In this document: piece after piece, positions 17,276 to 36,001 of the stretch | Position numbering within the stretch: position 1 is the first letter of the stretch | How the letters are laid out: each line of letters begins with the position of its first letter | Source of the DNA: Acidimicrobiales bacterium | Lineage (GTDB): Bacteria; Actinomycetota; Acidimicrobiia; Acidimicrobiales; Acidimicrobilacustridaceae | Length of the DNA stretch: 39,771 bases | Assembly: GCA_036520815.1 (NCBI GenBank) | Contig: DATDIY010000036.1 | Coordinates: 1 to 39,771 of the forward strand | Reading direction: 5' to 3' | Notes under the pieces: model-generated | What the model was told of the DNA's origin: nothing | Seen by the model: the letters and a program-made list of their open reading frames with translations, nothing else | Database searches by the model: none | Program-made: the position numbers and the translations under genes

Positions 17276-17524
17276 GCCTCAGGCAACGTAGTAGCCGCGA
17301 CCGAACGCGAACGCCCATGCCGGCAGGAGCGCGCCGCCGGAGCACCGAGCCACACCGCCACGGCGACGGCCACTGCGACGACCGCGAACGCGGCAACGCC
17401 TCGGCCCACGATGGCCACGGGGATCGCTGACGCGGCACCTCGACGCGTCGGATCGCGGCCATCGCCCGACCGCAATCGGGCCCCGTCGGAGTCAACAGTT
17501 CACCCCGGAGGGAGACCTGGCAGG

Positions 17525-18619: not shown

Positions 18620-18646
18620 CCCGTCCGCGATCAGGAGGGTTCGGAT

Positions 18647-18719
18647 GCCCCTGTGGCCAAGTGGCCAAGGCAGCCCGGGGTCGCTTGATCCGACGATCGT
18701 GGGCTCCGCGTCCCCACCT
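18647..18719 (+). pseudogene. decayed tandem copy of the downstream tRNA-Lys gene (tRNA pseudogene)
   Basis: A 91-bp-period duplication. The 18-nt upstream flank (gatcag[g/t]agggttcggat) matches at 17/18. tRNA positions 1-28 match at 27/28 and tccgacgatcgtggg matches at 15/15. The anticodon loop, T-loop (ctccgcgt instead of ttcgaac) and 3' acceptor strand are destroyed. Confidence 0.55.
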
Positions 18720-18737
18720 GATCAGTAGGGTTCGGAT

Positions 18738-18813
18738 GCCCCTGTGGCCAAGTGGCTAAGGCAGCGGACTTTTAATCCGACGATCGTGGGTTCGAACCCC
18801 ACCGGGGGCACCA
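18738..18813 (+). tRNA. tRNA-Lys (anticodon UUU)
   Basis: 76-nt cloverleaf folded by hand. The acceptor stem GCCCCTG/CGGGGGC has 7 bp including one G-U. The D-arm is GCC..AGTGG..GGC. The anticodon stem is (G)CGGA/TCCG(A) with loop CTTTTAA (TTT at 18771-18773). There is a 5-nt variable loop, T-arm GTGGG-TTCGAAC-CCCAC, discriminator A, and an encoded CCA. Confidence 0.85.
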
Positions 18814-18838
18814 TGCCGACGGCCGTTCCTGGAATCGG

Positions 18839-21222: not shown

Positions 21223-21277
21223 CGTGGCATCGCGTGCGGGCCACCCACCTGCTCGTCGCTCCTCGCGTGGCGCGTCG

Positions 21278-22006
21278 TCATGGATCGAGCCTGCGCAGGC
21301 TCCACACCTGTGGGGCTCGCTCGATCTGCACGGCGGCGGCGTGGCGCGCCGTCGTGCCGTCGATGGTGCGGAAGCTGGCGGTGATCTGACGGGCCAACGC
21401 CGGGTCGCCCGCAGCCGCGGTTGCCACCCGCATGGCCTCGTCGAGCAGCGCATCGGGAGCGGTGACCGCCATCGCCAGCCCCAATCGCACTGCGTCGGTC
21501 CCGGCGATGGGCTGGTTGCAGAGCGCCAGCCAGGCTGCGACCTGCCGGTCGACGGCGCGCAGCAGCTCCAGATGTCCGCCACCGGGATGGACACCGGCCC
21601 TCCCGAACCCGATGAACTCGGCCTCCTCGGAGACGATACGGACGTCGCACGCCAGTGGAAGGTTGACCCCGGCGCCGACGCAGGGCCCCTGCACCGCCGC
21701 GATCGTCGGCACCGGGCAGGCGACGATGCGGCGGAAGAGGGTGTAGATCTGGCCGAGCCCGTCGAAGGCGGCCTCGGCCAACGGATCGGCCATGGCGGCG
21801 CGCACGATCCGAAGGTCAGCCCCCGAGCAGAACGACGCCCCTTCGGCCCGCAGCAGGATGGCACCGACGCCCGGATCGTCGCTGGCGCGGTCGAACAGCT
21901 CCATGAGGCCACGGGCGAGCTCTGGCGTGAGCGCGTTGCGCCGGTCCGGGGCGTCGACCGTGATGACGGCCACGTTCCCTTCCACCTCGTACCGGGCTTC
22001 GTCCAT
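21278..22006 (-). CDS. enoyl-CoA hydratase/isomerase (crotonase) family protein
   Basis: MDEARYEVEGNVAVITVDAPDRRNALT...ILLRAEGASFCSGADL...GPCVGAGVNLPLACD. GGAGGGAG lies 6 nt upstream of the ATG. Confidence 0.85.
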   Translation of the reverse strand: MDEARYEVEGNVAVITVDAPDRRNALTPELARGLMELFDRASDDPGVGAILLRAEGASFCSGADLRIVRAAMADPLAEAAFDGLGQIYTLFRRIVACPVPTIAAVQGPCVGAGVNLPLACDVRIVSEEAEFIGFGRAGVHPGGGHLELLRAVDRQVAAWLALCNQPIAGTDAVRLGLAMAVTAPDALLDEAMRVATAAAGDPALARQITASFRTIDGTTARHAAAVQIERAPQVWSLRRLDP

Positions 22007-22106: not shown

Positions 22107-22121
22107 CTACGCCGAGCGTAA
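22107..22121. promoter_or_regulatory. operator candidate, site 2: CTACGC-CGA-GCGTAA (minus strand TTACGC-TCG-GCGTAG)
   Basis: Perfect TACGC-N3-GCGTA palindrome in the 153-nt gap between the MarR stop and the crotonase start, 101-115 nt upstream of ATG 22006. The same 15-mer frame occurs at 27001-27015. Confidence 0.5.
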
Positions 22122-22159
22122 CAATGGGCGGAGACGTGGGTCGAACCCGTCGGCGCTGG

Positions 22160-22657
22160 TCAGCGGCGCTTGCGGGTCCCGGTCGGCGGCGCGGCGTCGA
22201 AGTCGTGGCTCACCGGGTCGGGCCCCGCACTCGCCCCGAGCGCCTCGAGGACCTCAACGGTGACAGCGAGGCGGGCCAGAGCCCCGTCGTCGCCGAGCCG
22301 GAGCTGTTCGGCCAACCAGACGTTCCGCTTCGATCGGTAGACCTCGATCGCCCGTCGGGCGCGACGGGTCATGCGGACCCGGTGCACGCGGCGGTCGGTC
22401 GGGTCGATCACGCGCTCCACCAGACCCCTGCGCTCGAGGCCCCTCACGACCCTCGTGATGGTCGACGGGGACACCTGCTCCGCCACCGCCAGCTCGCCGA
22501 GGGTGATCGGGCCCTGGGTGACGATCGTCGCCAGTGCGGCCGCCGCGGCCGGCGAAAGTCCCTTGGCCTCCTGCTGGCGCAGGAGGCGAGCCAGCCGCGT
22601 CACCGACAGGCTGAGCCGGGCGACGAGTTCGTCGTCGTCGGCCATGGGCTCGTTCAT
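22160..22657 (-). CDS. MarR-family transcriptional regulator
   Basis: LSVTRLARLLRQQ...LSPAAAAALATIVTQGPITLGELAVAEQVSPSTITRVVRGLERRGLVERVIDPTDRRVHRVRMT shows the winged-HTH with the DxR wing. Start at ATG 22657 or 22645. The GTG at 22717 in the track is less likely. Confidence 0.85.
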   Translation of the reverse strand: MNEPMADDDELVARLSLSVTRLARLLRQQEAKGLSPAAAAALATIVTQGPITLGELAVAEQVSPSTITRVVRGLERRGLVERVIDPTDRRVHRVRMTRRARRAIEVYRSKRNVWLAEQLRLGDDGALARLAVTVEVLEALGASAGPDPVSHDFDAAPPTGTRKRR

Positions 22658-22756
22658 CGCCAGCAACGTACTCGGCGACCGTCGCGCCGCCCGGCACTGA
22701 CGACCTCGGCGCTCCACGACCGCTCCCGACGCGGGATCGTGGTGGCGGCCACCTGC

Positions 22757-23944
22757 TCAGGGAAGGGTGATCGGCAGCTTCGAGTAGCCACGATTGTCCG
22801 TGTGGTACATGAACTCGGCCTGAGCGAGATCGACGTCCCACTCCGGGAAGCGGACCAGCAGCTCCTCGAGGACGACGCGGGCCTCGAGGCGGGCCAGGGC
22901 CTGCCCCAGGCAGTAGTGCGAGCCGAACCCGAACGACACGTGGTGGTCGATCTTGCGCTGCACGTCGAGCCGGTCGGGGTCGTCGAAGTGGCGCTCGTCG
23001 CGGTTGCCCGCAGGGGTGAGGGTGACCATGAAGCTGCCGGCGGGCACCACCTCGCCGTGGATCTCGACGTCGCTGGCCACGTAGCGGCAGTTCTGCAGCG
23101 TGTTGGGCTCGAAGCGGAGGATCTCCTCGATGGCGTTGTTCGAGAGCGACGGATCAGCGGCCACGAGCGCCCGCTGGTCGGGGTTCTCGGCCAGCAGCTT
23201 TCCGGTGTAGCCGATGAGGATCCGCGTGGTCTCGTTGCCGGCGGCAGCGACGATGTTGACGTAGGCGAGCAACTCGTCGCGCGTGAGCTTGGTGGGTTTC
23301 CCGTTCTCATCGTCGAACTCGGCGTTCAGCAGGTGGCTGATGATGTCGTCGGCCGGGTTCTCGGCCCGCCAGTCGACGTAGTCGGCGAAGATCGCACCGC
23401 TGAGCGCACCGTCCTCCAGATGGCGGCCGCCGTCATCCCGGGCGGAGAGGAACTGGTCGCGGACGCCCTCCTGGTCGGCCTCGGGGATGCCGACCAGCAT
23501 GCCGATCACCCGCATCGGCACCTGCGAGGCCACCTCGGCGACGAGATCGAAGCCGCCCGAGCCGACGAGCGGGTCCATGAGCCCGGCGCAGAGGTCGCGG
23601 ATCTCTGCTTCGAGGCCTCCGATGCGTCGGGGCGTGAACATGCGCGACAGCAGGGCCCGGTGGATGGTGTGGGTCGGCGGGTCCTCGAAGATCAGCGTTC
23701 CCGGGGGGATGTTCATCCCCGACTGCAGGATGCCGAGGGTGACGCCCTTTCGCGAGATGAAGGTCTCGCGGTTCAGCAGGACCTGGGTGATGTCGTCGTA
23801 GCGGCTGACCGCGTTGAAGTCCTGCGACTCGTGGTGGTAGAGCGGCGCCTCGTCCCGGAGCCGGGCGAAGAGCGGGTACGGATCCCGGATCGTCTCGGGA
23901 TCTGTGGGGTCGTAGATCAGCTCGCTGGACGTCGTGGAGGTCAT
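22757..23944 (-). CDS. cytochrome P450
   Basis: Heme-binding loop FGFGSHYCLG, I-helix AAAGNETT, and ExxR (EEILRFEP). 395 aa from ATG 23944, with ATG 23953 as an alternative. The upstream part of the 518-aa track ORF is Arg-rich noise. Confidence 0.9.
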   Translation of the reverse strand: MTSTTSSELIYDPTDPETIRDPYPLFARLRDEAPLYHHESQDFNAVSRYDDITQVLLNRETFISRKGVTLGILQSGMNIPPGTLIFEDPPTHTIHRALLSRMFTPRRIGGLEAEIRDLCAGLMDPLVGSGGFDLVAEVASQVPMRVIGMLVGIPEADQEGVRDQFLSARDDGGRHLEDGALSGAIFADYVDWRAENPADDIISHLLNAEFDDENGKPTKLTRDELLAYVNIVAAAGNETTRILIGYTGKLLAENPDQRALVAADPSLSNNAIEEILRFEPNTLQNCRYVASDVEIHGEVVPAGSFMVTLTPAGNRDERHFDDPDRLDVQRKIDHHVSFGFGSHYCLGQALARLEARVVLEELLVRFPEWDVDLAQAEFMYHTDNRGYSKLPITLP

Positions 23945-23979
23945 CCGCCTCATCTTCCCCTGGTCGGCTGCACCGGGCC

Positions 23980-25686
23980 TCAGAGGCTCGGAGTCGTGGT
24001 GTCGCGACCGGATCGCAGCACGCGCCCCGGCCGTCGGTCGGTCGACGCCCCGTCGACGACGATCTCCTCGCCGTTCACGAGGACGTGCCCGACTCCGGTG
24101 CTGCCGGCGAACAGGCGCCGGCCTCCGGCGGGCAGGTCGGCTCGGGTCTCGGGCGGCTCGCTCCCGACGGTCGCCTCGTCGAACACGACGACGTCGGCCC
24201 ACGCCCCCTCCCGGAGCACGCCGCGATCGCGCAGGCCGTGGAGCTCGGCCGGCACCTGGGTGATCAGGCGCACGGCTTCCTCGGTGGAGAGCAGGCCGTG
24301 CTCGCGAACGCAATCGGAGAGAAGCGAGGTGGTGTACCGGAAGGTGTCGATCATGTCGAGGTGGGCGCCTGCGTCGGAGGCGCCGACGACGACGCGGGGA
24401 TCGCGCAGGACCTTGCCCCGGGCCTCCCAGTCCTCGCGGGCGTCACCGGACGGCGGCGGGCCGAACGAGGTGCGCAACTCGTCGGCGACGGCGAGGTCGA
24501 CGAGGGTGTCGAACGGGTCCTTGCCCTCCTCAGCCGCGATGTCGGCGACGGCGCGACCCTCGTAGCGCTGCAGCTCGGGCGAGCTGCACTCCTGGATGAC
24601 GAAGCGACCCCAGTGGTTCCAGTGGGACGGCTGCGACTCGGCCAGCTCGCGCATGTGGGCCCGCCCTTCCGGGCTCCGGAGCATCTGGAGCTTCTCCGGC
24701 GCCGGGAGAGCCATGAGCTTGTCCCAGCCCGGCATCATGTCGAGCACGAACCCGCTCAGGAAGTTGAGCCGCAAGTGGATCGGCATGGGCATGAACAGCG
24801 CCGCGATCCGGCCGCCCCGGGCCCGAGCCCGATCGGAGACCGCCAGCTTCGCCTCGACGGAATCGAGGTTGGCCGCGGTGACGTTGACGATGTTCCAGTT
24901 CAGCGAGCGTCCGGACCGCACCGTGAGGTCGATCATGATCTGCTCGATCGGCTCGGGGAACGGCCCGGGCCCGACGAAGGGCACCATCTCCAGGCAGGTG
25001 CCGGGGAACTCTCCACACACCTCGGCCAGGGCCATCAACTCCTCGACCGATGCGCACCGCGACGGGACAGGGTCGCCGGCGGCGTCGTTGTGGCTGCGGG
25101 CGAGACTCGACGAGAAGCCCAGGCCACCGGCGCCCAGGCCGGCGCGCAGCATCGCCTTCATGGCGTCGAGCTCGGTGGGCGTCGACTCCCGCTCCTTGGC
25201 CGCCTCGCCCATCACCACCCGACGGATGGCCGAGTGCCCCACCATGAAGCCGATGTTCGGGGCGACCGCTCCCTCGATGCGACCGAGGTACTCGTCCGTG
25301 GTGCCCCAGTCCCACGACGACGACGCCTCCAGCGAGGCGAGCGGCATGCCCTCGACCCGGGCCAGCATCGTCATGAGGTAGGAGGCGGCGTCGCCGTCGA
25401 GCGGCGCCACGCTGAAGCCGCAGTTCCCGCCGACCATCGACGTGATCCCGTGAAGGGTGGACGGAGCCAACGTGGGGTCCCACAGGACCTGGGCGTCGTA
25501 GTGCGTGTGCACGTCGACGAAGCCGGGCGCGACGATGCGACCCTCGGCGTCGATCACCTTGGCGGCGGGCTCGTCGACCTCGCCGATGGCGACGATGCGC
25601 CCGTCGCGGATGCCGACATCGCCATGGCGTCGAGGCGAACCGGTGCCGTCGACGATGGCGCCGTCCTTGACGATGGCGTCGAGCAT
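23980..25686 (-). CDS. N-acyl-D-amino-acid deacylase (D-aminoacylase)-family amidohydrolase
   Basis: MLDAIVKDGAIVDGTGSPRRHGDVGIRDGRIVAIG...IDAEGRIVAPGFVDVHTHYD, and C-terminal ...GASDAGAHLD...LREGAWADVVVFD. GAGGAGG lies upstream. The ATG shares a base with the upstream stop (TGATG at 25686). 568 aa. Confidence 0.8.
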   Translation of the reverse strand: MLDAIVKDGAIVDGTGSPRRHGDVGIRDGRIVAIGEVDEPAAKVIDAEGRIVAPGFVDVHTHYDAQVLWDPTLAPSTLHGITSMVGGNCGFSVAPLDGDAASYLMTMLARVEGMPLASLEASSSWDWGTTDEYLGRIEGAVAPNIGFMVGHSAIRRVVMGEAAKERESTPTELDAMKAMLRAGLGAGGLGFSSSLARSHNDAAGDPVPSRCASVEELMALAEVCGEFPGTCLEMVPFVGPGPFPEPIEQIMIDLTVRSGRSLNWNIVNVTAANLDSVEAKLAVSDRARARGGRIAALFMPMPIHLRLNFLSGFVLDMMPGWDKLMALPAPEKLQMLRSPEGRAHMRELAESQPSHWNHWGRFVIQECSSPELQRYEGRAVADIAAEEGKDPFDTLVDLAVADELRTSFGPPPSGDAREDWEARGKVLRDPRVVVGASDAGAHLDMIDTFRYTTSLLSDCVREHGLLSTEEAVRLITQVPAELHGLRDRGVLREGAWADVVVFDEATVGSEPPETRADLPAGGRRLFAGSTGVGHVLVNGEEIVVDGASTDRRPGRVLRSGRDTTTPSL

Positions 25687-26969
25687 CAGGCCTCCTCTGC
25701 GTTCTGGTGTGCAACGTGCTCGGACGTCCGAGCAGATCGCATACCGGAACGGGGGATGGACTGGCGGAGATCGGGTTCGAGACCGAGCATACGGATGGCG
25801 TTGCCCCGGGTGATCTTGTACACCTCGTCCTCGGGCAGCCCGGCCAGCGCCTTCGACAGGTACTCGTGGGTGTGGGGCCAGGTGGAGTCCTGGTGGGGGA
25901 AATCGGACTCGAAGGTGATCTGGTCGATCCCGACGGCCTCGCGCACCTCGATCCCGAAGTCGTCCTCGAAGAAGCACCCGAACACCCGACCGGCCATCTG
26001 GGCACTCGGGGGCTCCACGAAGACGTCGCCGACCTTGGAGATGGCGTTGCCCACCCGCCAGATCCGGTCCATCCGCTCGAGGGCGTACGGCATCCAGCCG
26101 ATCTGGCTCTCGGAGAACGCCAGCTTCACGTTGGGGTACTTCACCAGCAGGCCCGAGAACAACCAGTCGACGAACGACAGCTGGGCGTTGAAGTTGATGG
26201 TCGCCTGCCGGATCCGTCCTGGCGCGTCGTTGCCGGTCGATGGGACCGTCGACGACGAGCCGATGTGCATGCAGATGACCGTGCCGGTCTCGTCGCAGGC
26301 CTGGATGAACGGGAGCCAGTGGCCGTCGGCGGCGTGGATGCTCGGGAGATCGAGCATGGCGGGCAGCTCGGTGAACGAGACGGCCCGCACTCCCCGGGCG
26401 GCGTTGCGGCGGACCTCGACCGCGGCCAGGGCAGGATCCCAGAGAGGCACGAGGCACAGCGGCAGGAGCCGGCCTCCGCTCTCCCCGGCCCACTCTTCGA
26501 CCATCCAGTCGTTGTACGCGCGCAGGTAGGCGAGGGCGAGCTCCTTGTCCTCCATCCACAGGAAGAGCTGGCCGGCGAACCGGCAGGTGTTGGGGAAGCA
26601 CAGCGACCGCTCGATCTTCGCCCGGTCCATGTCGGCGAGGCGTGCCGGAACCTGCCAGCACCCGGGCCGCATCTCCTCGAACGTGATCGGGTCGTGGGTG
26701 ACCTCCTCGGGCGGCAGGCCGGCGGCGGCCTCCACCTTGGGGATGGCGAGGCGGAACTCACCGATCTCCCAGAACTCGGTGATCGGGCCGTCGCTCGCCG
26801 GCTCGAAGCCGTGGCTTCGCATGCCACCGCCACGCTGCCAGGGCAGACGCACGATCTTCGGGCCCTGCTCCCGGAGGGCGGCCGGCAGCCACGTCTGCCA
26901 CAGGTGTGGCGGCTCCATGATGTGGTCGTCGACCGAGATGATCCACGGGATCTCTTGGGCTGTGGTCAC
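25686..26969 (-). CDS. amidohydrolase-2 (ACMSD/LigW-like TIM-barrel metal hydrolase/decarboxylase) family protein
   Basis: WIISVDDHIMEPPHLW... and ...ITFESDFPHQDSTWP are hallmarks of the PF04909-type family. GTG start at 26969 is preceded by GGGGGGA. 427 aa. Confidence 0.75.
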   Translation of the reverse strand: MTTAQEIPWIISVDDHIMEPPHLWQTWLPAALREQGPKIVRLPWQRGGGMRSHGFEPASDGPITEFWEIGEFRLAIPKVEAAAGLPPEEVTHDPITFEEMRPGCWQVPARLADMDRAKIERSLCFPNTCRFAGQLFLWMEDKELALAYLRAYNDWMVEEWAGESGGRLLPLCLVPLWDPALAAVEVRRNAARGVRAVSFTELPAMLDLPSIHAADGHWLPFIQACDETGTVICMHIGSSSTVPSTGNDAPGRIRQATINFNAQLSFVDWLFSGLLVKYPNVKLAFSESQIGWMPYALERMDRIWRVGNAISKVGDVFVEPPSAQMAGRVFGCFFEDDFGIEVREAVGIDQITFESDFPHQDSTWPHTHEYLSKALAGLPEDEVYKITRGNAIRMLGLEPDLRQSIPRSGMRSARTSEHVAHQNAEEA

Positions 26970-27000
26970 ACGTCCCCCCGGAGGTGCTCGTCAAGCACTC

Positions 27001-27015
27001 TTACGCTATGCGTAG
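27001..27015. promoter_or_regulatory. operator candidate, site 1: TTACGC-TAT-GCGTAG
   Basis: Perfect TACGC-N3-GCGTA palindrome in a locally AT-richer patch of the 104-nt gap, 32-46 nt upstream of GTG 26969. An adjacent small hairpin GTGCT-cgtca-AGCAC lies at 26984-26998. Confidence 0.55.
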
Positions 27016-27073
27016 CTTTGTGTCGGATGCGGCGGACGTCAACTCGGTCGGATGGACCCGCCGGAGCGACCGC

Positions 27074-28192
27074 TCACATCCCCACCAGATCCGCCAGCCG
27101 TTCGCGCCACGCCGACGGAACGCCGAACAGCAGCTCGGACGAGGTGGCGCGCCGGAGATAGAGGTGCGCGGGATGCTCGTAGGTGAAGCCCATCCCTCCA
27201 TGGATCTGGATGTTCTCGGACGCCACCGAGACGTAGGCCTCCGAGCAGAACGACCTCGCGATGGCAGCCGCTTCGGACAGCTCCCCCGGCGCCTCGGCGG
27301 CGGTCCACATCGCGTTGTACGCGGCGGTCTTCGCCAGCTCGACCTCCATCAACATGTCGGCGCACTTGTGCTTGATGGCCTGGAAGCTGCCGATGATGCG
27401 GCCGAACTGAACCCGCTCGGAGGCGTAGGCCACCGCCATGTCGAGGACGCACTGCGATCCGCCGGCCTGCTCGGCCGCCAGACCGGTGACGGCGAGGTCG
27501 AACACCTCTGTGAGCAGCGCCCAGCCCTGCCCGTCGGTGCCGACCAACGTCGCCGGCACCCCGTCGAGCTCGAGGCGGGCCTGGGCCCGGGTGAGATCGA
27601 GGGTCTGCATCCGGGTCCGCACGAGCCCCGGCGCGTCACCCCGTACCGCGAAGAGCGACACGCCGGCAGCGGTGCGGGCGGCGACGAGCACGAGGTCGGC
27701 GATGTGGCCGTCGATCACGTACGACTTCGTTCCGGTGATCGCCCAGCCGTCGCCCACCGGTGATGCCCCGGTGGCGATCCCGGCTTCATCAGCACCGCCC
27801 GAGTCCTCGAGGTACGCCAGCGAGCCGATCACCGAGCCGTCCGCGATGCCCGGCAGCCACTCCCCCATCGCCGCCTCGTCGCCCGAGCAGAGCAGCGTGT
27901 TGGCGGCGAGCACGACGCTGGAGAGGAACGGGGCGCAGAGGAGGCTGCGGCCCATCTCCTCCAGCACGATTCCCAGCTCGACGAAGGAGTACCCCGAGCC
28001 GCCGTAGGCCTCGGGGATGGCGAGGCCCTGCAATCCGAGCTGCTCGGCCATCTGGCCCCAGACCGCCGGGTCGTAGCCCTCCACGGTCTCCATCAGCCGC
28101 CGCACCTCGGCCTCGGGCGACTTCTGCTCGAGGAAGGCGCGGACGGTGCGCCGCAGCTCGTCCTGCTCCTCGGTGAACACGATGTCGGTCAC
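27074..28192 (-). CDS. acyl-CoA dehydrogenase family protein, beta-type subunit
   Basis: The GTG at 28192 overlaps the upstream stop (GTGA). The product begins VTDIVFTEEQDELRRTVRAFLE... and continues ...IPEAYGGSGYSFVEL.... The C-terminus IQIHGGMGFTYEHPAHLYLRR lacks a GGT-E-Q motif. 372 aa. Confidence 0.82.
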   Translation of the reverse strand: MTDIVFTEEQDELRRTVRAFLEQKSPEAEVRRLMETVEGYDPAVWGQMAEQLGLQGLAIPEAYGGSGYSFVELGIVLEEMGRSLLCAPFLSSVVLAANTLLCSGDEAAMGEWLPGIADGSVIGSLAYLEDSGGADEAGIATGASPVGDGWAITGTKSYVIDGHIADLVLVAARTAAGVSLFAVRGDAPGLVRTRMQTLDLTRAQARLELDGVPATLVGTDGQGWALLTEVFDLAVTGLAAEQAGGSQCVLDMAVAYASERVQFGRIIGSFQAIKHKCADMLMEVELAKTAAYNAMWTAAEAPGELSEAAAIARSFCSEAYVSVASENIQIHGGMGFTYEHPAHLYLRRATSSELLFGVPSAWRERLADLVGM

Positions 28193-29784
28193 GAGCCCTC
28201 CCCGATGTCGCCCTTCGGATCGGCGAGCCCGAACGCGTCGCGAGCCAGCTCGCCGGCCCGACGGCGGTCGACCTTGTCCCGGGGCGTGAGTGGCACCGCG
28301 TCGATTGCGAAGAACCGGCGGGGGACCTTGTAGGCGGCGAGCTGCCCCCGCATCTCGTCGACGAGGGCCTGCTCGTCGGGCTCGCCGACCCACGCGACCC
28401 CGGCCACCGGCAGCTCGCCGAGGCGCTCGTCGGGCAGGGCCACGACGACGACGTCGTTCACGAGCGACGAGGCGCGCGCGACCTCCTCGACCTCGGCCGG
28501 GTAGACGTTGAACCCGCCCACGATCATCTTCTCCTGCACCCGCCCGGTGATGTAGAGGATCCCGTGCTCGTCGATGCGGCCGACGTCGCCCGTGGCGACG
28601 AAGCCGTCGGCGTCCACCGGCACGGCCTCGCCGCCGATGAACTCGGTCGAGGCCCCGTCGGTCCGCACCATGATCTCGCCCTCACCTTCAGGGCGGTCGT
28701 CGTCGAGGTGGCGGATGCGCACCTCGACTCCGGCGGCGAGCCGTCCGACCGAGCCCGGGCCACGGAGGCCGGCACGAACGTCGTCGAGGCGCTCCTGGGC
28801 GACGGCACCCACCTCGGTGTTGCCGTAGGCCTGCATCACCGGGATGCCGTAACGCGCTTCGAAGCGCTCGCGCACCGCTGTCGCCAGGGGCGCGGTGCCC
28901 GACGTGGCGAACGTGACGCTGCTCAGGTCGAGGACCTCGTCGGTGTCGGCGAGCGCGTGGATCATCGCCGGCGTGAGCTGCAGCGAGTCCATCGGGTAGT
29001 TGGAGAGCAGGGCGCGTACCGCCGGCACGGTGAACCTCGGGACCAGCAGCGTGGGGCGGCCGATCCAGAGTCGGAACGCCACCCGGACGAAGCCCGTCAT
29101 GTGGCCGAACGGGTTGAAGATGACCCCGGGCGGGAGATGGGCCGGCGCCGGATCGGGCCGGTACGAACCGCTGCGGGCGTAGCCGGCGGCGATCCCGCTG
29201 CCCTCGGCGATCAGATCGGCGTGCGTGTGGGGGATGCCCTTCGGTCGGCCGGTGGTGCCGGACGTGAAGATGGCGACAGCCAGGTCGTCGGGATCGGGAG
29301 TGGGCAGCACTGCGGTCGTCCACCCGTCGGCGCCCGGATCGGCGGCGCCGACGAGCACGCCCGACCCGTCGACCTCGATCACCCTGACGTCGCCACCCAG
29401 CGACGGGGCACCCTGGCGGCGAACGACGACGTCCACCTCGGCCAGGTCGAAGAGGCGGTCGGCCTCGTTGGCCGGCAACAGCGTGCCCACCGCGGCGACG
29501 GCGCCGCCGGCGAACCACACGCCCAGCGACGCCACGACCCAGCACGGCTCGTTGGTCAGATAGCAGCCGACCCGATCGCCCGGTCCGACCCCGGCGTCGC
29601 GCAGGGCGCCGGCGAGGGCCGCCGCCCGGGAGAGCACCTGGCCGTAGGACAGGGCGTGAGTCGTGTAGGGCTCGTGCTCGTCGACGGTGACGAGGAACGG
29701 CGCGGTGGCGTCGCTCCGGGCCCGGCGCAGCGCCATCTCGGGGACGGTGACCGGAGGGGCCTCGACCTCCGCTGCCGCGGTCAC
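28189..29784 (-). CDS. AMP-dependent acyl-CoA synthetase/ligase
   Basis: AMP-binding motif IFTSGTTGRPKGIPHTH, and ...TGDVGRIDEHGILYITGRVQEKMIVGGFNVYPAEVEE. The GTG at 29784 overlaps the upstream stop (GTGA). An internal ATG (MALRRARS) is an alternative start. Confidence 0.85.
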   Translation of the reverse strand: MTAAAEVEAPPVTVPEMALRRARSDATAPFLVTVDEHEPYTTHALSYGQVLSRAAALAGALRDAGVGPGDRVGCYLTNEPCWVVASLGVWFAGGAVAAVGTLLPANEADRLFDLAEVDVVVRRQGAPSLGGDVRVIEVDGSGVLVGAADPGADGWTTAVLPTPDPDDLAVAIFTSGTTGRPKGIPHTHADLIAEGSGIAAGYARSGSYRPDPAPAHLPPGVIFNPFGHMTGFVRVAFRLWIGRPTLLVPRFTVPAVRALLSNYPMDSLQLTPAMIHALADTDEVLDLSSVTFATSGTAPLATAVRERFEARYGIPVMQAYGNTEVGAVAQERLDDVRAGLRGPGSVGRLAAGVEVRIRHLDDDRPEGEGEIMVRTDGASTEFIGGEAVPVDADGFVATGDVGRIDEHGILYITGRVQEKMIVGGFNVYPAEVEEVARASSLVNDVVVVALPDERLGELPVAGVAWVGEPDEQALVDEMRGQLAAYKVPRRFFAIDAVPLTPRDKVDRRRAGELARDAFGLADPKGDIGEGS

Positions 29785-31010
29785 GATCGCTTCACCTGCG
29801 ACCACGGCACACCCTTGTCGGCCGATGGCTCCTTGGGGAGGCCGAGCACCCGTTCGCCGAGGATGTTGCGCTGCACCTCCGAGGTACCCCCGGCGATGGT
29901 CTTCGAGCGTCCCCGGAGGTAGGCCCAGGCCGTGCCGCGGTGCCAGCGGTCGTCCTCGACCCACGCCTGGCCGGCCGGGCCCTCGAGCTCGAGGGCGAAG
30001 GCCTGAAGGCGCTGGGAGTGCTCGCTGTAGAAGAGCTTGGTGATCGACCCCTCCGGTCCTGGCTGCTGACCGGCCCGTCGCTTGGCTGCGGCCCGCTGGT
30101 TGGTGAGCGACACCAGGCGGTCCTCGATGTAGAGCTCGGCCAGGCGCTGGCGCAGCAACGGGTCGCCGACGGGGGCGTGCCGCTTGATGAGCGCCCTCAC
30201 CGACCGGCCGGTGGTGGTGCCCGGCAGCGACGCACCGCTGCCGGCGACGGCCTGACGCTCGCTGGCCAGGATGGAGGTGCTGACCTTCCACCCCTCACCG
30301 ATCGGGCCGAGGCGCAGCGAGTCGTCGACCCGGGCGTCGTCGAAGAAGACCTCGTTGAACTCCGGATCCCCGGTGATCTGCGGCAGGGGCCGGATGGTCA
30401 CCCCGGGTTGGTCCATCGGCAGGAGGAACGCCGTGATCCCCTGGTGCTTGGGCACATCGGGGTCGGTGCGAGCCAGCAGAAGCCCGAACGACGACTCGTG
30501 AGCCATGCTCGCCCACACCTTCTGCCCGTTGACGATCCACGTGTCGCCGTCGCGAACGGCGCGGGTGGCGAGGCTGGCGAGATCGGAGCCGGCACCGGGC
30601 TCGGAGAAGAGCTGGCACCAGATCTCTCGATGCTGGGCGATGGGGCGGAGGAACCGCTCCTTCTGGTCGTCGGTGCCCCACCGGAGGATGGCGGAACCGG
30701 CGAGGTCGACGCCGATCGGGTTGGTGAAGCGGGGAACCTTGTAACGGCCGAGCATCCGGGCGATGCCGGACGCGACCTTCGGGGCGAGTCCGAGACCGCC
30801 GTACTCGACCGGCCACGTGGGCGTGACGTAGCCGGCCTCGGCCAGATCGAGCCACCACTGGTCGAGCTCGAGCTCCTCCCGTGCCGACGAGAGCGCGTCG
30901 GCATCGTCCTCGTCGATCGCCTTCACCCAACGGGCCGGGAGTCGGCCCCGGAGGAACCGCTCGGCCTGCGCGGCGAGCTCGTCGGCGCCGACCGGGTCGC
31001 TCACTGCCAC
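29781..31010 (-). CDS. acyl-CoA dehydrogenase, alpha-type subunit
   Basis: 409 aa with ...TPTWPVEYGGLGL..., WIVNGQKVWAS, and C-terminal IAGGTSEVQRNILGERVLGLPKE. It is a paralogue of the 18839-20098 product. Confidence 0.85.
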   Translation of the reverse strand: MAVSDPVGADELAAQAERFLRGRLPARWVKAIDEDDADALSSAREELELDQWWLDLAEAGYVTPTWPVEYGGLGLAPKVASGIARMLGRYKVPRFTNPIGVDLAGSAILRWGTDDQKERFLRPIAQHREIWCQLFSEPGAGSDLASLATRAVRDGDTWIVNGQKVWASMAHESSFGLLLARTDPDVPKHQGITAFLLPMDQPGVTIRPLPQITGDPEFNEVFFDDARVDDSLRLGPIGEGWKVSTSILASERQAVAGSGASLPGTTTGRSVRALIKRHAPVGDPLLRQRLAELYIEDRLVSLTNQRAAAKRRAGQQPGPEGSITKLFYSEHSQRLQAFALELEGPAGQAWVEDDRWHRGTAWAYLRGRSKTIAGGTSEVQRNILGERVLGLPKEPSADKGVPWSQVKRS

Positions 31011-31780
31011 CGGGGCTCCCGCTTCTCTGCGAACGCCAGCGGCCCCTCTTTGCAGTCAGGGTGGTCCCGGAAGGCCCGCAGGAGCTCCCAACCATGCTGC
31101 ATGGCCTCCGACATCGGCCGCTCGAGCGACGCCCGTATCGCCCGCTTCGACGCCTCGATGGCCCCCGGGGAGCCGCTCGACGCCAGCTCGGCCAGCTCGA
31201 TGGCGCGATCGACGAGCCGCTCGGGCTCCACGACCTCGTCGACGAGCGAGATGCGGTGGGCCTCGTGGACGTCGATCCGCCCGTGCCGGCCCAGCACGGC
31301 GAGGCGGAGGGCGTTGCCCAGACCGATGCGGGGCACGAGCGTGATCGGCTCGATGGCGGCCACCTGGCCGACGCTCACGTGGGTGTCGAGGAAGGAGGCG
31401 TTGGTCGATGCGACGATCACGTCGGCGTCGGCGAGGAAGTGGAGCCCGGAGCCTGTGCACACCCCATTGACCGCCACGATGGTGGGCAGCCAGCAGTCGC
31501 ACTCGAGCGGCGTGGTCTGCAGGTGGTCACTGACCTTCGGCACGACCGGGCGCGGCCCGCCCTCCTCGGCTGCGTCCTTGAGGTCCATCCCGGTGCAGAA
31601 CGCACGCTCCCCGGTACCGGTGACCACGATGGCACGGACGCTCGGATCGTCCTTCAGCGATCGCCACGTGTCGCGGAAGCCCTCGTGCACGGCGCGGCTG
31701 AGCGCGTTCATGCGTTCCGGGCGGTCGATCGTCGCCACGAGCACGTGGCCTCGCCGCTCGATCCTGAGTCCGTCGATCAT
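31001..31780 (-). CDS. enoyl-CoA hydratase/isomerase (crotonase) family protein
   Basis: VLVATIDRPERMNAL...IVVTGTGERAFCTGMDLK...VNGVCTGSGLHFLADAD. The ATG overlaps the upstream stop (ATGA at 31777-31780). Confidence 0.85.
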   Translation of the reverse strand: MIDGLRIERRGHVLVATIDRPERMNALSRAVHEGFRDTWRSLKDDPSVRAIVVTGTGERAFCTGMDLKDAAEEGGPRPVVPKVSDHLQTTPLECDCWLPTIVAVNGVCTGSGLHFLADADVIVASTNASFLDTHVSVGQVAAIEPITLVPRIGLGNALRLAVLGRHGRIDVHEAHRISLVDEVVEPERLVDRAIELAELASSGSPGAIEASKRAIRASLERPMSEAMQHGWELLRAFRDHPDCKEGPLAFAEKREPRWQ

Positions 31781-33012
31781 GGGGCAGCCGCCTCGGGGTC
31801 GTCCTCTGGGTCGTACTCGGGGATGACGGCCGGGCCACCGTCGGACCCAGCCAGGATCACGACGATCCGGGCGGTGCAGGTCGTCTCGCCCCGCTGGTTG
31901 ACGCCCTCAGCGTCGACGGTGACCGTGCCACGGTCACGATCGACCTCGGACACCACCCCGGACACGACGTGGGCGTCGCCCAGATAGTCGAACTTCCGGG
32001 CCGTCGCCGTGATCTTCCAGATCCAGGCGCCGTCGCCCATCCAGTTCCCGACGAGCTGCGCCATCCACGCCGTGCGCATGACGCCGTAGTCGTAGGCGGC
32101 GGGATGGCCCATGCGCTGAGCCCACTCGTCGTCCCAGTGGCAGCGCTGGACGGTGTCCCAGAACCCCTGCTCGTTGCGTGTGTAGAACTTCGGGATCCTC
32201 TGGCGGTTCTGGTACGCGATCTTCGACGGGCCGCCCCCGAACATCCCCCAGCCCGTGCCCGTGTGCCAGCTCAGGATGTCGGTGACGCTCAGCGGTCCCT
32301 TGGCGATGGGCCCGAGGCGCGCACCGACCTCGACCTCGTCGATCGAGAGGTGCTCGGCGCCACGCACGCTCTCCGCCGCGTAGAGAGCGTCGAGGCGCTC
32401 GACGTCGTCGTCGGTGTAGGTGGCCCGCTCGACCACCCGCTTCTCGCCGGCCTTCTTCGACTTGTCGCGGTCGACGTGCATGTAGTCGAGGTAGCGGAAC
32501 CCGAGGAGGCGGCCGTCGCCCGCCTCCCATCGCACGCGGTGGGTGACGAGGGCCCCCACGCCGTCACCGAGCCGGCTGCTCTTCAGCTCGGCGCCGTAGA
32601 GCGACTGCGAGCGGTACATCACGTCGCCGGGGCGCACGGGGCTGGCGAACAGCCACCGTTCGCCACACATGTACTGGCCGATGCCGGCGAGCGGGTCACC
32701 ACCCGACATGGCCTCCTTCTCGGCGTCGGACCACTCGACCGGCCGGCTGATGCCGGCCGAGAACAGGTAGACCGGGGGGGCGATCGGGCCGCTCCACGAC
32801 GACGACGCCGCGTACTCGGGGTCGCCGTAGAGCGGGTTGTCGTCGCCGTAGCCGCGGGCGAAGTGCCGGAACGAGTCCGTCGATGCGACCTCGTTGTGCT
32901 CCCGTGGGGAGAAGCGCACCGGGATGCCGATGCGCCGGCGCACCAGATCGAGGGTCTCCTCGTTCAGCTCCCTGGGTGCGTTGGAGGTGCGCGCTCGCTC
33001 CCCGGTGGTCAC
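31777..33012 (-). CDS. fused double hot-dog (MaoC-like N- and C-terminal domains) hydratase/dehydratase
   Basis: The GTG at 33012 is preceded by GGAGGAAG. The N-terminal half reads RHFARGYGDDNPLYGDPEYA...GPIAPPVY (MaoC-dehydratase-N type). The C-terminal half ends in a hot-dog-like ...DAHVVSGVVSEVDRDRGTVTVDAEGVNQRGE. 411 aa. The upstream part of the track ORF overlaps the amidohydrolase gene. Confidence 0.65.
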   Translation of the reverse strand: MTTGERARTSNAPRELNEETLDLVRRRIGIPVRFSPREHNEVASTDSFRHFARGYGDDNPLYGDPEYAASSSWSGPIAPPVYLFSAGISRPVEWSDAEKEAMSGGDPLAGIGQYMCGERWLFASPVRPGDVMYRSQSLYGAELKSSRLGDGVGALVTHRVRWEAGDGRLLGFRYLDYMHVDRDKSKKAGEKRVVERATYTDDDVERLDALYAAESVRGAEHLSIDEVEVGARLGPIAKGPLSVTDILSWHTGTGWGMFGGGPSKIAYQNRQRIPKFYTRNEQGFWDTVQRCHWDDEWAQRMGHPAAYDYGVMRTAWMAQLVGNWMGDGAWIWKITATARKFDYLGDAHVVSGVVSEVDRDRGTVTVDAEGVNQRGETTCTARIVVILAGSDGGPAVIPEYDPEDDPEAAAP

Positions 33013-33037
33013 GATCTTCCTCCGCCCACTCCGGCCC

Positions 33038-34231
33038 TCACGCCCCGAGCTTGAGGACGTCGGCCAGGTTGCCGCCCATGATGCGGGCGATGTCGTCGTG
33101 GGGCAGGCCCTCGAGCTGTTGGGCGTAGGAAACCGGGTCGGCCAGGCCCTCGGGGTGCGGGTAGTCCGAGCCGAACAACACGCGGTCGGTGCCGACGATC
33201 TCCGCCAGCCCGATCGGGTCCTCCTCATGGAACGGATGCACCCACACGTTGCGCTTGAACGCCGCGACCGGATCCTCCTCGTAGAGGTGGGGCTGCTGGG
33301 CATAGGCCCTCCCCATGGCGTGGAGCAGCGGTCGCACCCAGTCGGTGCCGTTCTCGACCGGCATCACGCGGAGGGTAGGGAACCGGGTGAACAGGCCTTC
33401 GGTCACGGCCGACGCCATGGCGTCGAAGATGCCCCGCCGCTCGTGGCGCAGGAGCTCCTCGAAGGCGCTGAAGCCCCCGAAGGGGAGGAACTCGCCGCGC
33501 TGGCCCCGCCACCGGTTGATGTACGAGGTCATGCCGTCGTCGGACGAGTGCATCCCGACGGCGATGTCGGCCTCGACGACCTTCTCCCAGAACGGATCGA
33601 ACTCGGGAAGGGCGAACGACCGGGTTCCCATGAAGCCGGGCACCGGAGCCGGGCGGATGAGGATCGCCTTGGCCCCGCGCTCGACCACCCACTCGAGCTC
33701 GTCGATCGCCTTCTCGACGATCGGCAGGGTGATCACGGGCACTGCGTAGATGCGATCCACGTAGTTGAACGACCAGGTCTCGTGCATCCACTGGTTGAGC
33801 GCGTGGATCACCACGTGGGTCGCCTCGGGATCATCGCCGATCCGCTCCTCGAGCAGGCTCGCCAGCGTCGGCCACATGAGGGTGCGGTCGATGCCGAGCT
33901 CGTCGAGCAGCTTGATGCGCGGCTCGGGCTCGAAGAACGCCTCGGGCGAGCGCATGGGCTCGCCCATGATCTCTCGGCGCGTCTTGCCCTCGGGGTTGCC
34001 CTTGGCGAAGTAGTCCTCCTGGGCCCCCGGGCGGGCGACGACCTCGAAGGTGGGGTTCGGGATGTAGTCGGAGATGACGTTGCGCAGCGCGATCTTGGTG
34101 CGCCCGTTCACCTGGACGTACTTCACCAGACCCTTCCACTGGTCCGGCAGGTACCGGGTGAAGGCGGCCTCCGGCTCGTACAAGTGGTTGTCGGCATCGT
34201 TGACCGGAAAGTCCAGCGTCACGTTGGCCAT
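33038..34231 (-). CDS. amidohydrolase-2 family protein
   Basis: DFPVNDADNHLYEPEAAF... and ...VLFGSDYPHPEG. I prefer ATG 34231 (MANVTL) over the track start at 34258. The extra 9 codons (ATG AAA ATA TCT...) lie in an AT-rich promoter-like patch and contain the likely GGGGG Shine-Dalgarno sequence. Confidence 0.78.
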   Translation of the reverse strand: MANVTLDFPVNDADNHLYEPEAAFTRYLPDQWKGLVKYVQVNGRTKIALRNVISDYIPNPTFEVVARPGAQEDYFAKGNPEGKTRREIMGEPMRSPEAFFEPEPRIKLLDELGIDRTLMWPTLASLLEERIGDDPEATHVVIHALNQWMHETWSFNYVDRIYAVPVITLPIVEKAIDELEWVVERGAKAILIRPAPVPGFMGTRSFALPEFDPFWEKVVEADIAVGMHSSDDGMTSYINRWRGQRGEFLPFGGFSAFEELLRHERRGIFDAMASAVTEGLFTRFPTLRVMPVENGTDWVRPLLHAMGRAYAQQPHLYEEDPVAAFKRNVWVHPFHEEDPIGLAEIVGTDRVLFGSDYPHPEGLADPVSYAQQLEGLPHDDIARIMGGNLADVLKLGA

Positions 34232-34245
34232 GCCATTACCCCCAG

Positions 34246-34277
34246 GAGATATTTTCATAGCGGTACTAATTCACATG
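34246..34277. promoter_or_regulatory. AT-rich (about one-third GC) island in the divergent intergenic region; candidate promoter of the minus-strand operon
   Basis: gagatattttcatagcggtactaattcacatg contains 11 G/C of 32 nt inside an otherwise very GC-rich window. It lies 15-46 nt upstream of ATG 34231. Confidence 0.35.
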
Positions 34278-34326
34278 CCACCACGGCCGGCCCGCCGACA
34301 GCAAGACGGCGGCGTTGGTCTCGAAG

Positions 34327-34341
34327 GTACGCCCCGCCTAG
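34327..34341. promoter_or_regulatory. operator candidate, site 3 (one core mismatch): GTACGC-CCC-GCCTAG
   Basis: It matches TACGC-N3-GCGTA at 9 of 10 core positions and shares the 3' flank G. It lies 20-34 nt upstream of ATG 34361 of the divergent acyl-CoA synthetase. Confidence 0.4.
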
Positions 34342-34378
34342 GTTCGTCGCTGTCTGCACCATGGAGACGAGGGGAACA

Positions 34379-36001
34379 GTGAGCGAGACCGAGCCGCACC
34401 ACGCGACGATCCTGGAGGGGATCGCCGACCGCATGCAGCAGCGGCCGGCGCTACGCCACGGTGACCGGGTCGTCTCGTGGACCGAGTTCGACGACCGGGC
34501 CGCCCGGCTGGCCAGCGCGCTCCTGGCCCACGGCGTCGGGCGGGAGGACTCCGTCGGGCTCTACCTCTACAACGGCCCGGAGTACCTGGAGGCGTTCCTC
34601 GCGGCGCTCAAGATCCGGGCCCGGATGTTCAACGCGAACTACCGATACCGAGGCGGCGAGCTGCACCAGCTGCTCGACAACGCCCAGGCCCGGGCTCTCG
34701 TCTACTCCGCCGCCCTGCGCGACAGGGTGGCCTCCGCCATCGATCACCTTCCCGACCTGCGCCTACTCGTCGAGGTCGGCGACGACGAGACCAGCCCACC
34801 CATCCCCGGGGCGCTCCGCCTCGACGACCTCCTGGCCGAGTTCGAGCCGGCCCCTCGAATCCACCGCCCCGGCACCGACACCTACCTCAACTACACGGGG
34901 GGCACGACCGGCGTGCCCAAGGGCGTCCTCATCGAGGTCCAGCGCCACCTGGGCACCGTCGCCTGGCTCCGCGACCAGTACGTCGGCCGGCCGCTCGAAG
35001 GCGACATGGTCGACGTCGCCCTCGAGCTCGCGGAGCAGGGCGAGTCGCTCGATGTGATCCCGGCGTCGCCGTTGATGCACGGCGTCGGTTTCACCTTCTC
35101 CTCGATGCCCGGTCTGATGACAGGCGGTGTCGTGACCACCCTGGTCGGTCGATCGTTCGACCCCGAGGAGCTGCTGACCACGATCGCGGCCACCCGTCCC
35201 CGCGTCGTGGCCATCGTCGGCGACGCCTTCGGTCTCCCGATCGTGCGGGTCCTCGACGACGCCAGCGCCGCCGGGATCAGCTACGACACCAGCTCCGTGC
35301 AGGTCCTCTGCTCCGCCGGCGTGGCCTGGAGCGCCCCGATCAAGCAGCGCCTGCTCGACCACATGCCGCACGTGGCCCTCGTCGACGCCTGCGGGTGCAC
35401 CGAGGGCGTGTCCTATGGCACTCGTACGGTGCGGCGGGGCGACCCACTGACCACGGCGAACTTCGACGCCGCGCCAGGCATCAAGGTTCTCTCGCCCGAG
35501 GGCGCCGAGCTGCCGCCGGGCGAGATCGGCCTGCTCGCCGGGCCCACCCAGGGCAACGGCTTCTTCCGCGACCAGGAGAGCACCGCGGCCACCTACCTCC
35601 GGCTCGACGGTGCCCAGTACGCCGTCCCGGGCGACCTGGGCCGCATCGAGCCGGATGGCACCGTGACCCTGATCGGGCGAGGGATGGCAACGATCAACAC
35701 GGGCGGGGAGAAGGTGTACCCGACCGAGGTGGAGGACGCCCTCAGGGCCCTCCCGGAGGTCGACGACTGCCTGGTGCTCGGCGTGCCCGACGAGCGCCTC
35801 GGGCAGCGAGTCGCCGCCCTCATCGTGGCGTCCCCCGACGCGGTCGTCGACTTCGGCGACCTCGTTCGCCGGCTCCGTGAGGAGCTGGCCGGCTACAAGG
35901 TGCCCAGCCGGATCCGACTCGTCGACGAGGTGCCCCGGGCCGCCAACGGCAAGACCGACTATCCCACCGCCTCGGCCCTCGCCGAGGCGACATCTGGCTA
36001 G
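34379..36001 (+). CDS. AMP-dependent acyl-CoA synthetase/ligase
   Basis: LNYTGGTTGVPKGV AMP motif, and ...VPGDLGRIEPDGTVTLIGRGMATINTGGEKVYPTEVEDAL. GTG 34379 is preceded by GAGGGGAA, and ATG 34361 is an in-frame alternative. Everything upstream in the 1035-aa track ORF is antisense to the amidohydrolase gene. Confidence 0.85.
   Translation: MSETEPHHATILEGIADRMQQRPALRHGDRVVSWTEFDDRAARLASALLAHGVGREDSVGLYLYNGPEYLEAFLAALKIRARMFNANYRYRGGELHQLLDNAQARALVYSAALRDRVASAIDHLPDLRLLVEVGDDETSPPIPGALRLDDLLAEFEPAPRIHRPGTDTYLNYTGGTTGVPKGVLIEVQRHLGTVAWLRDQYVGRPLEGDMVDVALELAEQGESLDVIPASPLMHGVGFTFSSMPGLMTGGVVTTLVGRSFDPEELLTTIAATRPRVVAIVGDAFGLPIVRVLDDASAAGISYDTSSVQVLCSAGVAWSAPIKQRLLDHMPHVALVDACGCTEGVSYGTRTVRRGDPLTTANFDAAPGIKVLSPEGAELPPGEIGLLAGPTQGNGFFRDQESTAATYLRLDGAQYAVPGDLGRIEPDGTVTLIGRGMATINTGGEKVYPTEVEDALRALPEVDDCLVLGVPDERLGQRVAALIVASPDAVVDFGDLVRRLREELAGYKVPSRIRLVDEVPRAANGKTDYPTASALAEATSG

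Follow-up and report, generated by a model that had tools for sequence, protein, structure and literature searches.

A TACGC-N3-GCGTA palindrome as the probable operator of a MarR-family regulator in a catabolic gene cluster of uncultured soil actinobacteria

Contig DATDIY010000036.1 of the Acidimicrobiales bacterium assembly GCA_036520815.1 carries a catabolic gene cluster that includes one gene for a MarR-family regulator, and a short palindrome, TACGC-N3-GCGTA, recurs in promoter gaps of this cluster. The window, i.e. the whole stretch of DNA that was analysed, is a 39.8-kb metagenome contig with about 71% G+C. The palindrome is a conserved, non-random, sequence-specific intergenic element, and it co-occurs strictly with one MarR orthogroup and the same target genes. 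Comparative sequence analysis makes it quite probable that the palindrome is the operator of the MarR homodimer encoded at 22160-22657, acting through the mechanism proposed below. The result is a well-supported assignment of regulator, operator and targets for an uncharacterised MarR subfamily of uncultured soil actinobacteria, joining an Amidohydro_2/Amidohydro_3 pair (AH2 and AH3), an enoyl-CoA hydratase (ECH), a two-subunit acyl-CoA dehydrogenase (ACAD) and, probably, a second beta-oxidation-like operon.

Within the window, the 13-bp palindrome is perfect at 27002-27014 (site 1) and 22108-22120 (site 2), and a copy with one mismatch lies at 34328-34340 (site 3). Scanning both strands with the pattern TACGCNNNGCGTA, at most one mismatch being allowed, returned these three matches and no other, in agreement with an earlier reading of the same DNA made from the letters alone (hereafter the sequence-only reading). 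Dinucleotide-preserving shuffles gave 0.42 matches on average, and none of the 100 shuffles reached three. A weight matrix derived from 11 of the external sites, and from no window site, gave sites 1, 2 and 3 scores of 23.7, 19.8 and 4.8 bits, respectively, and a scan of 1.9 Mb of control DNA yielded nothing at 14 bits or above.

The coordinates and letters of the three sites (Table 1) were confirmed by reading the sequence, and the distances of 32 nt (site 1) and 20 nt (site 3) to the start codons had been given correctly. Site 1 sits in a 104-bp gap between an ACAD stop codon (27074) and an AH2 start (26969), site 2 in the gap that runs from the MarR stop (22160) to the ECH start (22006), and site 3 in a 102-bp divergent gap between an AH2 start (34258, minus strand) and the ATG of a gene for an AMP-binding ligase (34361, plus strand). 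The three sites had been described as filling the only sizeable gaps of the cluster; all three are indeed intergenic, but two further gaps exist, of 99 bp between the P450 stop and the MarR start (22658-22756) and of 250 bp after the last ACAD (18587-18838), and the palindrome, sought in both, was found in neither.

An inspection of orthologous clusters had been set beforehand as a check of the operator proposal. MarR homologs were searched directly, and their contigs were obtained via exact-protein look-up and a metagenome scan using the ortholog alignment. Ortholog loci were those with a MarR 58-84% identical to that of the window and enough flanking DNA, which left 14 testable lineages covering 154 kb (individual loci are designated by L numbers). 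The controls, 1.97 Mb in total, consisted of 71 loci with MarR paralogs of at most 55% identity and of 80 amidohydrolase loci without MarR, the latter fetched from reference genomes by an Amidohydro_2 protein (50-63% identical, 1.46 Mb). At least one perfect site was present in 12 of the 14 ortholog lineages versus none of the 71 paralog loci (Fisher p = 7e-13). Altogether, 14 non-redundant perfect sites, namely window sites 1 and 2 and 12 external ones, occur in the 154 kb of ortholog loci, all of them intergenic, versus none in the 1.97 Mb of controls. A perfect site is carried by L082-85, L088 (two sites), L089/90, L091-93, L094, L097, L098/99, L100, L101, L102 and L179. The outcome of the check thus speaks for the palindrome as the putative operator of a dimeric regulator.

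The distant amidohydrolase loci (50-63%) had been candidates for orthologs; they were rejected as such, having neither MarR nor motif, and kept as negative controls. None of these 80 loci contained a MarR homolog or a perfect motif, and their one-mismatch matches stayed at background level. One of them, L002, nevertheless possesses the Amidohydro_2/Amidohydro_3 pair (63%). The MarR paralogs of at most 55% identity do not adjoin orthologs of the target genes.

The identity of these targets is constant. In tblastn searches with the window proteins, the gene following the motif was always an ortholog either of the ECH downstream of site 2 (ECH_22006, 79-83% identity) or of the AH2 downstream of site 1 (AH2_26969, 63-74%). 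The ECH-class ortholog is then followed by two ACADs and the AH2-class ortholog usually by AH3. Sites of the AH2_26969 class were found in L082, L088, L089, L091, L097, L098, L101 and L179, and AH2 and AH3 orthologs with 63-74% identity lie behind the motif in at least eight lineages. Sites of the ECH_22006 class lie about 100 nt upstream of the ortholog in L094, L102 and L088, with a degenerate copy in L081; in L094 and L088, orthologs of the unit downstream of site 2 stand behind the motif at 77-85% identity. The contig P0002, which carries the closest MarR ortholog (81%), has the same gene order as this unit in the window.

Moreover, the position of the motif tracks the target gene and not the 3' end of the MarR gene. 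At L102 (330-1303), an unannotated open reading frame (ORF) of about 1 kb separates MarR from the site, which still lies about 100 nt before ECH. In L088, as at window site 1, the site comes after an ACAD gene and before AH2-AH3-(P450)-MarR, and in L179 the perfect site before AH2-AH3 is separated from MarR by an aldehyde dehydrogenase gene. The co-occurrence and the two recurrent target gene sets back the earlier proposal that the MarR encoded in the cluster is the likely regulator and that the regulon is specific to the cluster.

The two ACAD genes downstream of site 2 are adjacent and separate in the window (20095-21279 and 18839-20098), and L088 (4577-6943) encodes a 788-aa fusion of the two subunits; because of this fusion, the window pair can be viewed with some support as one heteromeric enzyme.

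The features expected of an operator and its regulator are found together here: a MarR winged-helix domain in the protein, a 5-N3-5 inverted repeat that suits a homodimer, and an intergenic position conserved along with the regulator gene. The protein matches PF01047 with 60 bits (cut-off 24.6) and PF12802 with 48 bits (cut-off 27), and all its matches in the PDB belong to the MarR family. The ten core bases are invariant over the 14 non-redundant sites, while spacer and flanks vary, and the alignment of the MarR orthogroup shows hardly any change in the recognition helix (VSPSTIT[KR]) or the wing (DRRVHR). An invariant core between variable flanks fits base-specific recognition by a symmetric protein, and the near-invariance of helix and wing fits a fixed DNA specificity.

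Two observations count against assigning the operator to this MarR. Only 8-9 bp separate the centres of the half-sites, a spacing towards the lower end of the range for MarR operators, and two ortholog lineages, L081 and L096, have no intact site. In L081 (3745-3760), the sequence TTACGCTTAGCCAAA keeps the left half-site and has lost the right half; in L096 (800-850), MarR runs directly into ECH with no gap and no site. Such operator loss may reflect decay or rewiring of the regulon. L095 was left out of the count, as its sequence ends 28 bp past the MarR stop. In L081, a CMD-family gene also replaces the ACADs.

The palindrome could be a genuine operator that serves another dimeric regulator, one whose gene lies outside the cluster, with MarR merely linked to the target genes. 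The promoter region of MarR itself is devoid of the motif, and L081 and L096 retain MarR beside ECH with no intact site, as such a scheme would allow. However, MarR alone accompanies the motif throughout, at loci that otherwise vary (sulfotransferase, cyclase, response regulator or aldehyde dehydrogenase genes), and no other regulator family recurs nearby. Motif and MarR orthogroup also appear and disappear together, in 12/14 lineages versus 0/71 paralog loci and 0/80 AH2 loci without MarR, so that we consider an outside regulator improbable. In the window, Pfam searches of the encoded proteins identify MarR as the sole transcription factor of the cluster.

With MarR as the presumed binder, the sequence around the sites suggests how it could act. 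Read towards the gene, the majority of sites have the sequence TGnTACGCT, which resembles an extended -10 element (TGnTAnnnT). The dinucleotide TG occupies positions -3/-2 in 9/14 sites, versus 1/14 for the mirror CA, and the first spacer base is T in 13/14 sites, versus 5/14 for the mirror A; this asymmetry is unexpected for symmetric protein contacts and fits an extended -10 better. Site 2 reads TGT-TACGCT on the minus strand, and a -35-like hexamer, TCGACC (22139-22144, minus strand), lies 18 nt upstream of TACGCT, the left half of the site. Aligned by register, the ECH class shows TCGACC in the window, TCGACT in L081, TCGCTC in L102 and TCGCCC in L094, with spacers of 17-18 nt. TCGACC and TACGCT hence form a candidate promoter for the ECH-ACAD-ACAD unit, and the overlap of the sites with the -10 suggests repression by promoter occlusion.

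The mechanism that we infer is the following. In the unliganded state, the MarR homodimer (22160-22657) would bind TACGC-N3-GCGTA with one winged-helix domain per TACGC half-site. The left half-site and the first spacer base would at the same time constitute the -10 hexamer (TGnTACGCT) of two promoters, one driving the Amidohydro_2/Amidohydro_3(/P450) unit and the other the ECH/ACAD/ACAD unit, so that the bound dimer would exclude RNA polymerase and both units would be repressed. The repressor would come off the DNA in response to a metabolite of the pathway, perhaps a CoA thioester. The weaker variant site at 34327-34341 would probably extend this control to the third operon of the cluster, to the acyl-CoA ligase, or to both, and MarR itself would probably be expressed from a small leaderless promoter of its own.

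Several observations sit uneasily with the promoter overlap. No sigma-70-type promoter emerges at any site from a consensus promoter scan, TACGCT agrees with TATAAT at 3/6 positions only, and the sense strand of window site 1 has TACGCA, where the -10 overlap fails as it stands. Furthermore, the sites of one target class share their orientation and flanks by descent, and few independent events underlie the directional bias. MarR might thus bind the site and activate, or act as a roadblock or dual regulator, without occluding the -10. Apart from the missing promoter calls and the sense-strand reading of site 1, such a mode would suit the ECH-class sites, which leave about 100 nt before the start codon and hence room for a promoter downstream of the site, and some MarR proteins are activators (PMC4737184). 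On the other hand, the gene-proximal bias towards TG and T agrees with an extended -10, the ECH class shows no conserved block from site to start codon, and the characterised MarRs of catabolic clusters are mostly repressors. Activation or a dual role therefore receives a small share of our belief, about equal to that of an outside regulator, and repression by occlusion remains the mode we favour.

We judge it very improbable that the palindrome acts as RNA, in the form of a hairpin, terminator or attenuator, and not as protein-bound DNA. A terminator scan does flag site 1, on the plus strand, and the site of L082 (8704-8736) is embedded in a 27-bp near-perfect extended palindrome (AGAGATGTTACGCTTGGCGTAGCATCTCC) with an RNA fold z of -4.5, a feature that the other lineages lack. 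Yet the stem has just 5 bp and the loop 3 nt, and folding is no better than that of shuffled sequences (z = +0.44 for window site 1, +0.9 and +1.5 for site 3, +1.0 for L088). The single terminator call falls on the non-transcribed strand, and the T-run that follows site 1 belongs to the non-coding strand and is not conserved in the orthologs. The ten paired bases are strictly invariant and never co-vary: no compensatory change occurs in the core, and pairing is not kept at the positions directly outside it, a pattern that fits protein recognition and not RNA structure. An intrinsic terminator or structured RNA was accordingly rejected on fold z-scores near or above 0 for most copies, on the strand and on the absence of covariation.

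Site 3, which reads TAGGC-GGG-GCGTA on the minus strand, deserves separate treatment. To its disadvantage, it alters a core base that is invariant elsewhere, and its 4.8 bits are no better than the scores of some matches in coding regions (two are similar). Judging from the controls, 40 kb should contain about 1.6 matches with the score of site 3, but a 102-bp gap only 0.004. The same variant (TAGGC-AGT-GCGTA) occurs in L179 between the MarR stop and the next gene, whereas the 1.97 Mb of controls contain no TAGGC-N3-GCGTA. On the strength of the intergenic position and of this recurrence, site 3 probably serves as a weaker operator, and its assignment is less certain than those of sites 1 and 2. 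The third operon is itself tied to the regulon through L088, since orthologs of two of its genes, ECH_31780 (68%) and ACAD_31010 (71%), belong there to a unit behind a perfect site. By position alone, the divergent acyl-CoA synthetase (34361-36001) is possibly also under site 3. Among relatives of the first gene of the third operon, AH2_34258, those examined at L174-L178 have other contexts and no motif, and the contig P0121 (90% identity) is the only one found with the gene order of the window at this place. As for the view that the matches are chance products of a GC-rich window, the 4.8 bits of site 3, taken alone, would suit it, but the shuffles and the contrast between ortholog and control loci already refute it for sites 1 and 2, and its probability is practically nil.

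The variant site of L179 has further particularities. It lies inside a 10-3-10 inverted repeat (713-745; GATACTAGGC / GCGTAGTATC) between the MarR stop and the aldehyde dehydrogenase gene, and the called GTG start of the latter (729) falls within the site. An ATG about 11 nt past the site, with TAGTAT before it, looks like the real, possibly leaderless start.

The sequence-only reading had also proposed that MarR would be autoregulated through site 1. In the window, the AH2 unit precedes MarR, and transcription from site 1 could read through into the MarR gene, but this arrangement was seen in the window and L088 only. Elsewhere the gene upstream of MarR is a response regulator (L081), an ACAD (L096), a sulfotransferase (L082), a divergent cyclase (L089) or an SGL-family gene (L091). 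In addition, MarR has a promoter-like element of its own. Directly before its ATG stands the conserved element AGTACGTTGCTGGCG (22658-22672, minus strand), with the hexamer TACGTT (22665-22670) 7 nt before the start codon. The block AGTACGTTGCyGGCrATG is found at the MarR start in the window, L081 (3112-3129), L095 (967-985) and L096 (320-338), the upstream genes differing. Other subclades have GAGACTG-N5-start (L082, L088, L089) or TACCGT-N8-ATG (L179) at this place, and in each case a -10-like hexamer of the A2/T6 type lies 5-8 nt before the start codon. This spacing is the arrangement expected for leaderless mRNAs at actinobacterial promoters, and the conserved block is thus probably the promoter of MarR itself, giving a leaderless mRNA. 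Neither the window scan nor the weight matrix detected the palindrome in the block or in the 99-bp gap before MarR. Given the different upstream neighbours and the motif-free element, autoregulation is not conserved, even if read-through could provide it in the window. The element at the MarR start (GTACGTTGC) was also considered as an operator half-site and rejected, as no second half-site accompanies it and the hexamer found there in the 62-68% subclade is unrelated.

MarR proteins bind inverted repeats as homodimers, mostly in the role of repressors (PMC4737184), and the best functional analogue of the window MarR is CouR (PDB 3FM5, 5CYV). In Rhodococcus jostii RHA1, CouR is the MarR repressor of p-hydroxycinnamate catabolism in a CoA-dependent cluster; its box, ATTGA-N5-TCAAT, occurs at four promoters and overlaps the -35, and p-coumaroyl-CoA releases the protein (PMC4737184). 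Both systems combine an actinobacterial MarR located inside a catabolic cluster with CoA-dependent enzymes and a short inverted repeat that recurs in several promoter gaps of the cluster; the CouR box overlaps a core promoter element, and the window box may do so. However, the similarity between the proteins is marginal (5cyv, E = 1.6e-4, 25 bits), the window box is TACGC-N3-GCGTA and apparently lies on the -10, and no operator is seen at the MarR promoter, whereas CouR is autoregulated from a shared divergent operator. Purely by analogy with CouR, the ligand of the window MarR might be an acyl-CoA.

The closest solved structure is Rv0880/AcasR of Mycobacterium tuberculosis (PDB 4YIF, E = 7e-14), and the best NCBIfam match is the corresponding model NF052438. 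AcasR is reported to repress fadD9, a gene of the acyl-CoA-ligase type, and its reported motif, TAATATATTTACTTT, is AT-rich and non-palindromic (PMC13491442). It is unrelated to TACGC-N3-GCGTA, and the genomic context differs as well. The candidate equivalence with Rv0880/AcasR was rejected: the score against NF052438 (72.4 bits) is far below the equivalog cut-off (220), and the window MarR is therefore not a member of this group.

A literature search for the motif string gave no match among the searchable papers. Other actinobacterial regulators control comparable gene sets: KstR and KstR2 are TetR-family repressors of steroid and lipid catabolism in actinobacteria, with the boxes TnnAACnnGTTnnA and AnCAAGnnCTTGnT, respectively. 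As proposed for the present system, they act via a short palindrome in promoter gaps on several operons that comprise ACAD, ECH, acyl-CoA ligase and P450 genes. Unlike their regulons, the window cluster has a box that differs from both, as had been noted from the letters, and no TetR gene, a TetR_N domain being found by Pfam neither in the cluster nor in the rest of the window.

The switch proposed here is of an ordinary kind, a MarR repressor/operator pair in a catabolic cluster, and leaves the general view of MarR regulation unchanged. In practice, the 13-bp box can be used to trace the regulon in metagenome-assembled genomes, and operator and putative repressor make a compact pair for electrophoretic mobility shift assays, ligand screening and the building of biosensors. 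A more speculative proposal, which we hold tentatively and with well under even confidence, concerns the MarR orthogroup, found so far only in uncultured Acidimicrobiia-like actinobacteria of soil: it would respond to a CoA-thioester intermediate of an as yet undescribed catabolic pathway built around the Amidohydro_2/Amidohydro_3 pair and the heteromeric PimCD/IpdE-like ACAD, with the operator embedded in the -10 hexamer and promoter and operator co-evolving as one 13-bp unit. If true, the motif would be the signature of a new regulon specific to this pathway, and would supply a ready-made orthogonal biosensor part.

The genes of the window (Table 1) were assigned with Pfam over all window proteins, and with NCBIfam for the cluster enzymes and MarR. 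The window proteins are closest to those of uncultured Acidimicrobiia/Acidimicrobiales. The cluster enzymes match NCBIfam models below the cut-offs only: PimC/PimD-like and IpdE2-like ACADs, a PRK05870-type ECH and a PRK07798-type ligase. For the ACADs downstream of site 2, the best matches are PimD/IpdE2-like and PimC-like, all sub-cut-off, and the divergent synthetase reaches 495 bits against PRK07798 (cut-off 543).

Table 1. Palindrome sites, genes and putative transcription units of the cluster.
Feature	Position	Strand	Basis or remarks
Site 1	27001-27015		TTACGCTATGCGTAG (TTACGC-TAT-GCGTAG); perfect core; 32 nt upstream of Amidohydro_2 GTG 26969
Site 2	22107-22121	read on minus	TTACGCTCGGCGTAG (TTACGC-TCG-GCGTAG); perfect core
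Site 3	34327-34341		GTACGCCCCGCCTAG (GTACGC-CCC-GCCTAG); one core mismatch; 20 nt before AMP-ligase ATG
Divergent acyl-CoA synthetase (AMP-binding)	34361-36001, ATG 34361	plus	Pfam
Third operon (Amidohydro_2, MaoC/FAS1-type hydratase, ECH, ACAD, AMP-ligase, ACAD)	27074-34258	minus	downstream of site 3
Amidohydro_2 (AH2_34258)	33038-34258	minus	Pfam
MaoC/FAS1-type hydratase	ends at 31777	minus	Pfam
ECH (ECH_31780)	31001-31780	minus	Pfam
ACAD (ACAD_31010)	29781-31010	minus	Pfam
AMP-ligase of third operon	ends at 28189	minus	Pfam
ACAD, last gene of third operon	stop 27074	minus	Pfam
Unit downstream of site 1 (Amidohydro_2, Amidohydro_3, P450)	22757-26969	minus	Pfam
Amidohydro_2 (AH2_26969)	25686-26969, GTG start 26969	minus	Pfam
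Amidohydro_3	about 23980-25689	minus	Pfam
Cytochrome P450	22757 to about 23980	minus	Pfam
MarR-family regulator gene, 165 aa	22160-22657	minus	PF01047
Unit downstream of site 2 (ECH, ACAD, ACAD)	18839-22006	minus	Pfam, NCBIfam
Enoyl-CoA hydratase (ECH_22006)	21278-22006	minus	Pfam
Acyl-CoA dehydrogenase subunits, two	20095-21279 and 18839-20098	minus	Pfam

A 364-aa ORF with no Pfam match (17492-18586, minus strand) lies directly 3' of the cluster, after the 250-bp gap, and is a candidate gene only. Elsewhere, the window contains housekeeping genes and encodes a Rex-like redox regulator (Put_DNA-bind_N and CoA_binding domains; 5003-5731, minus strand) and an RsiG-like protein (10447-11019, minus strand); the genes of the latter two adjoin hemA and hemC-like genes and are unrelated to the cluster. 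Outside the window, the ortholog locus L089 (957-3005) contains a dCTP deaminase gene split by an intein, with matches to Intein_splicing, Hom_end and LAGLIDADG.

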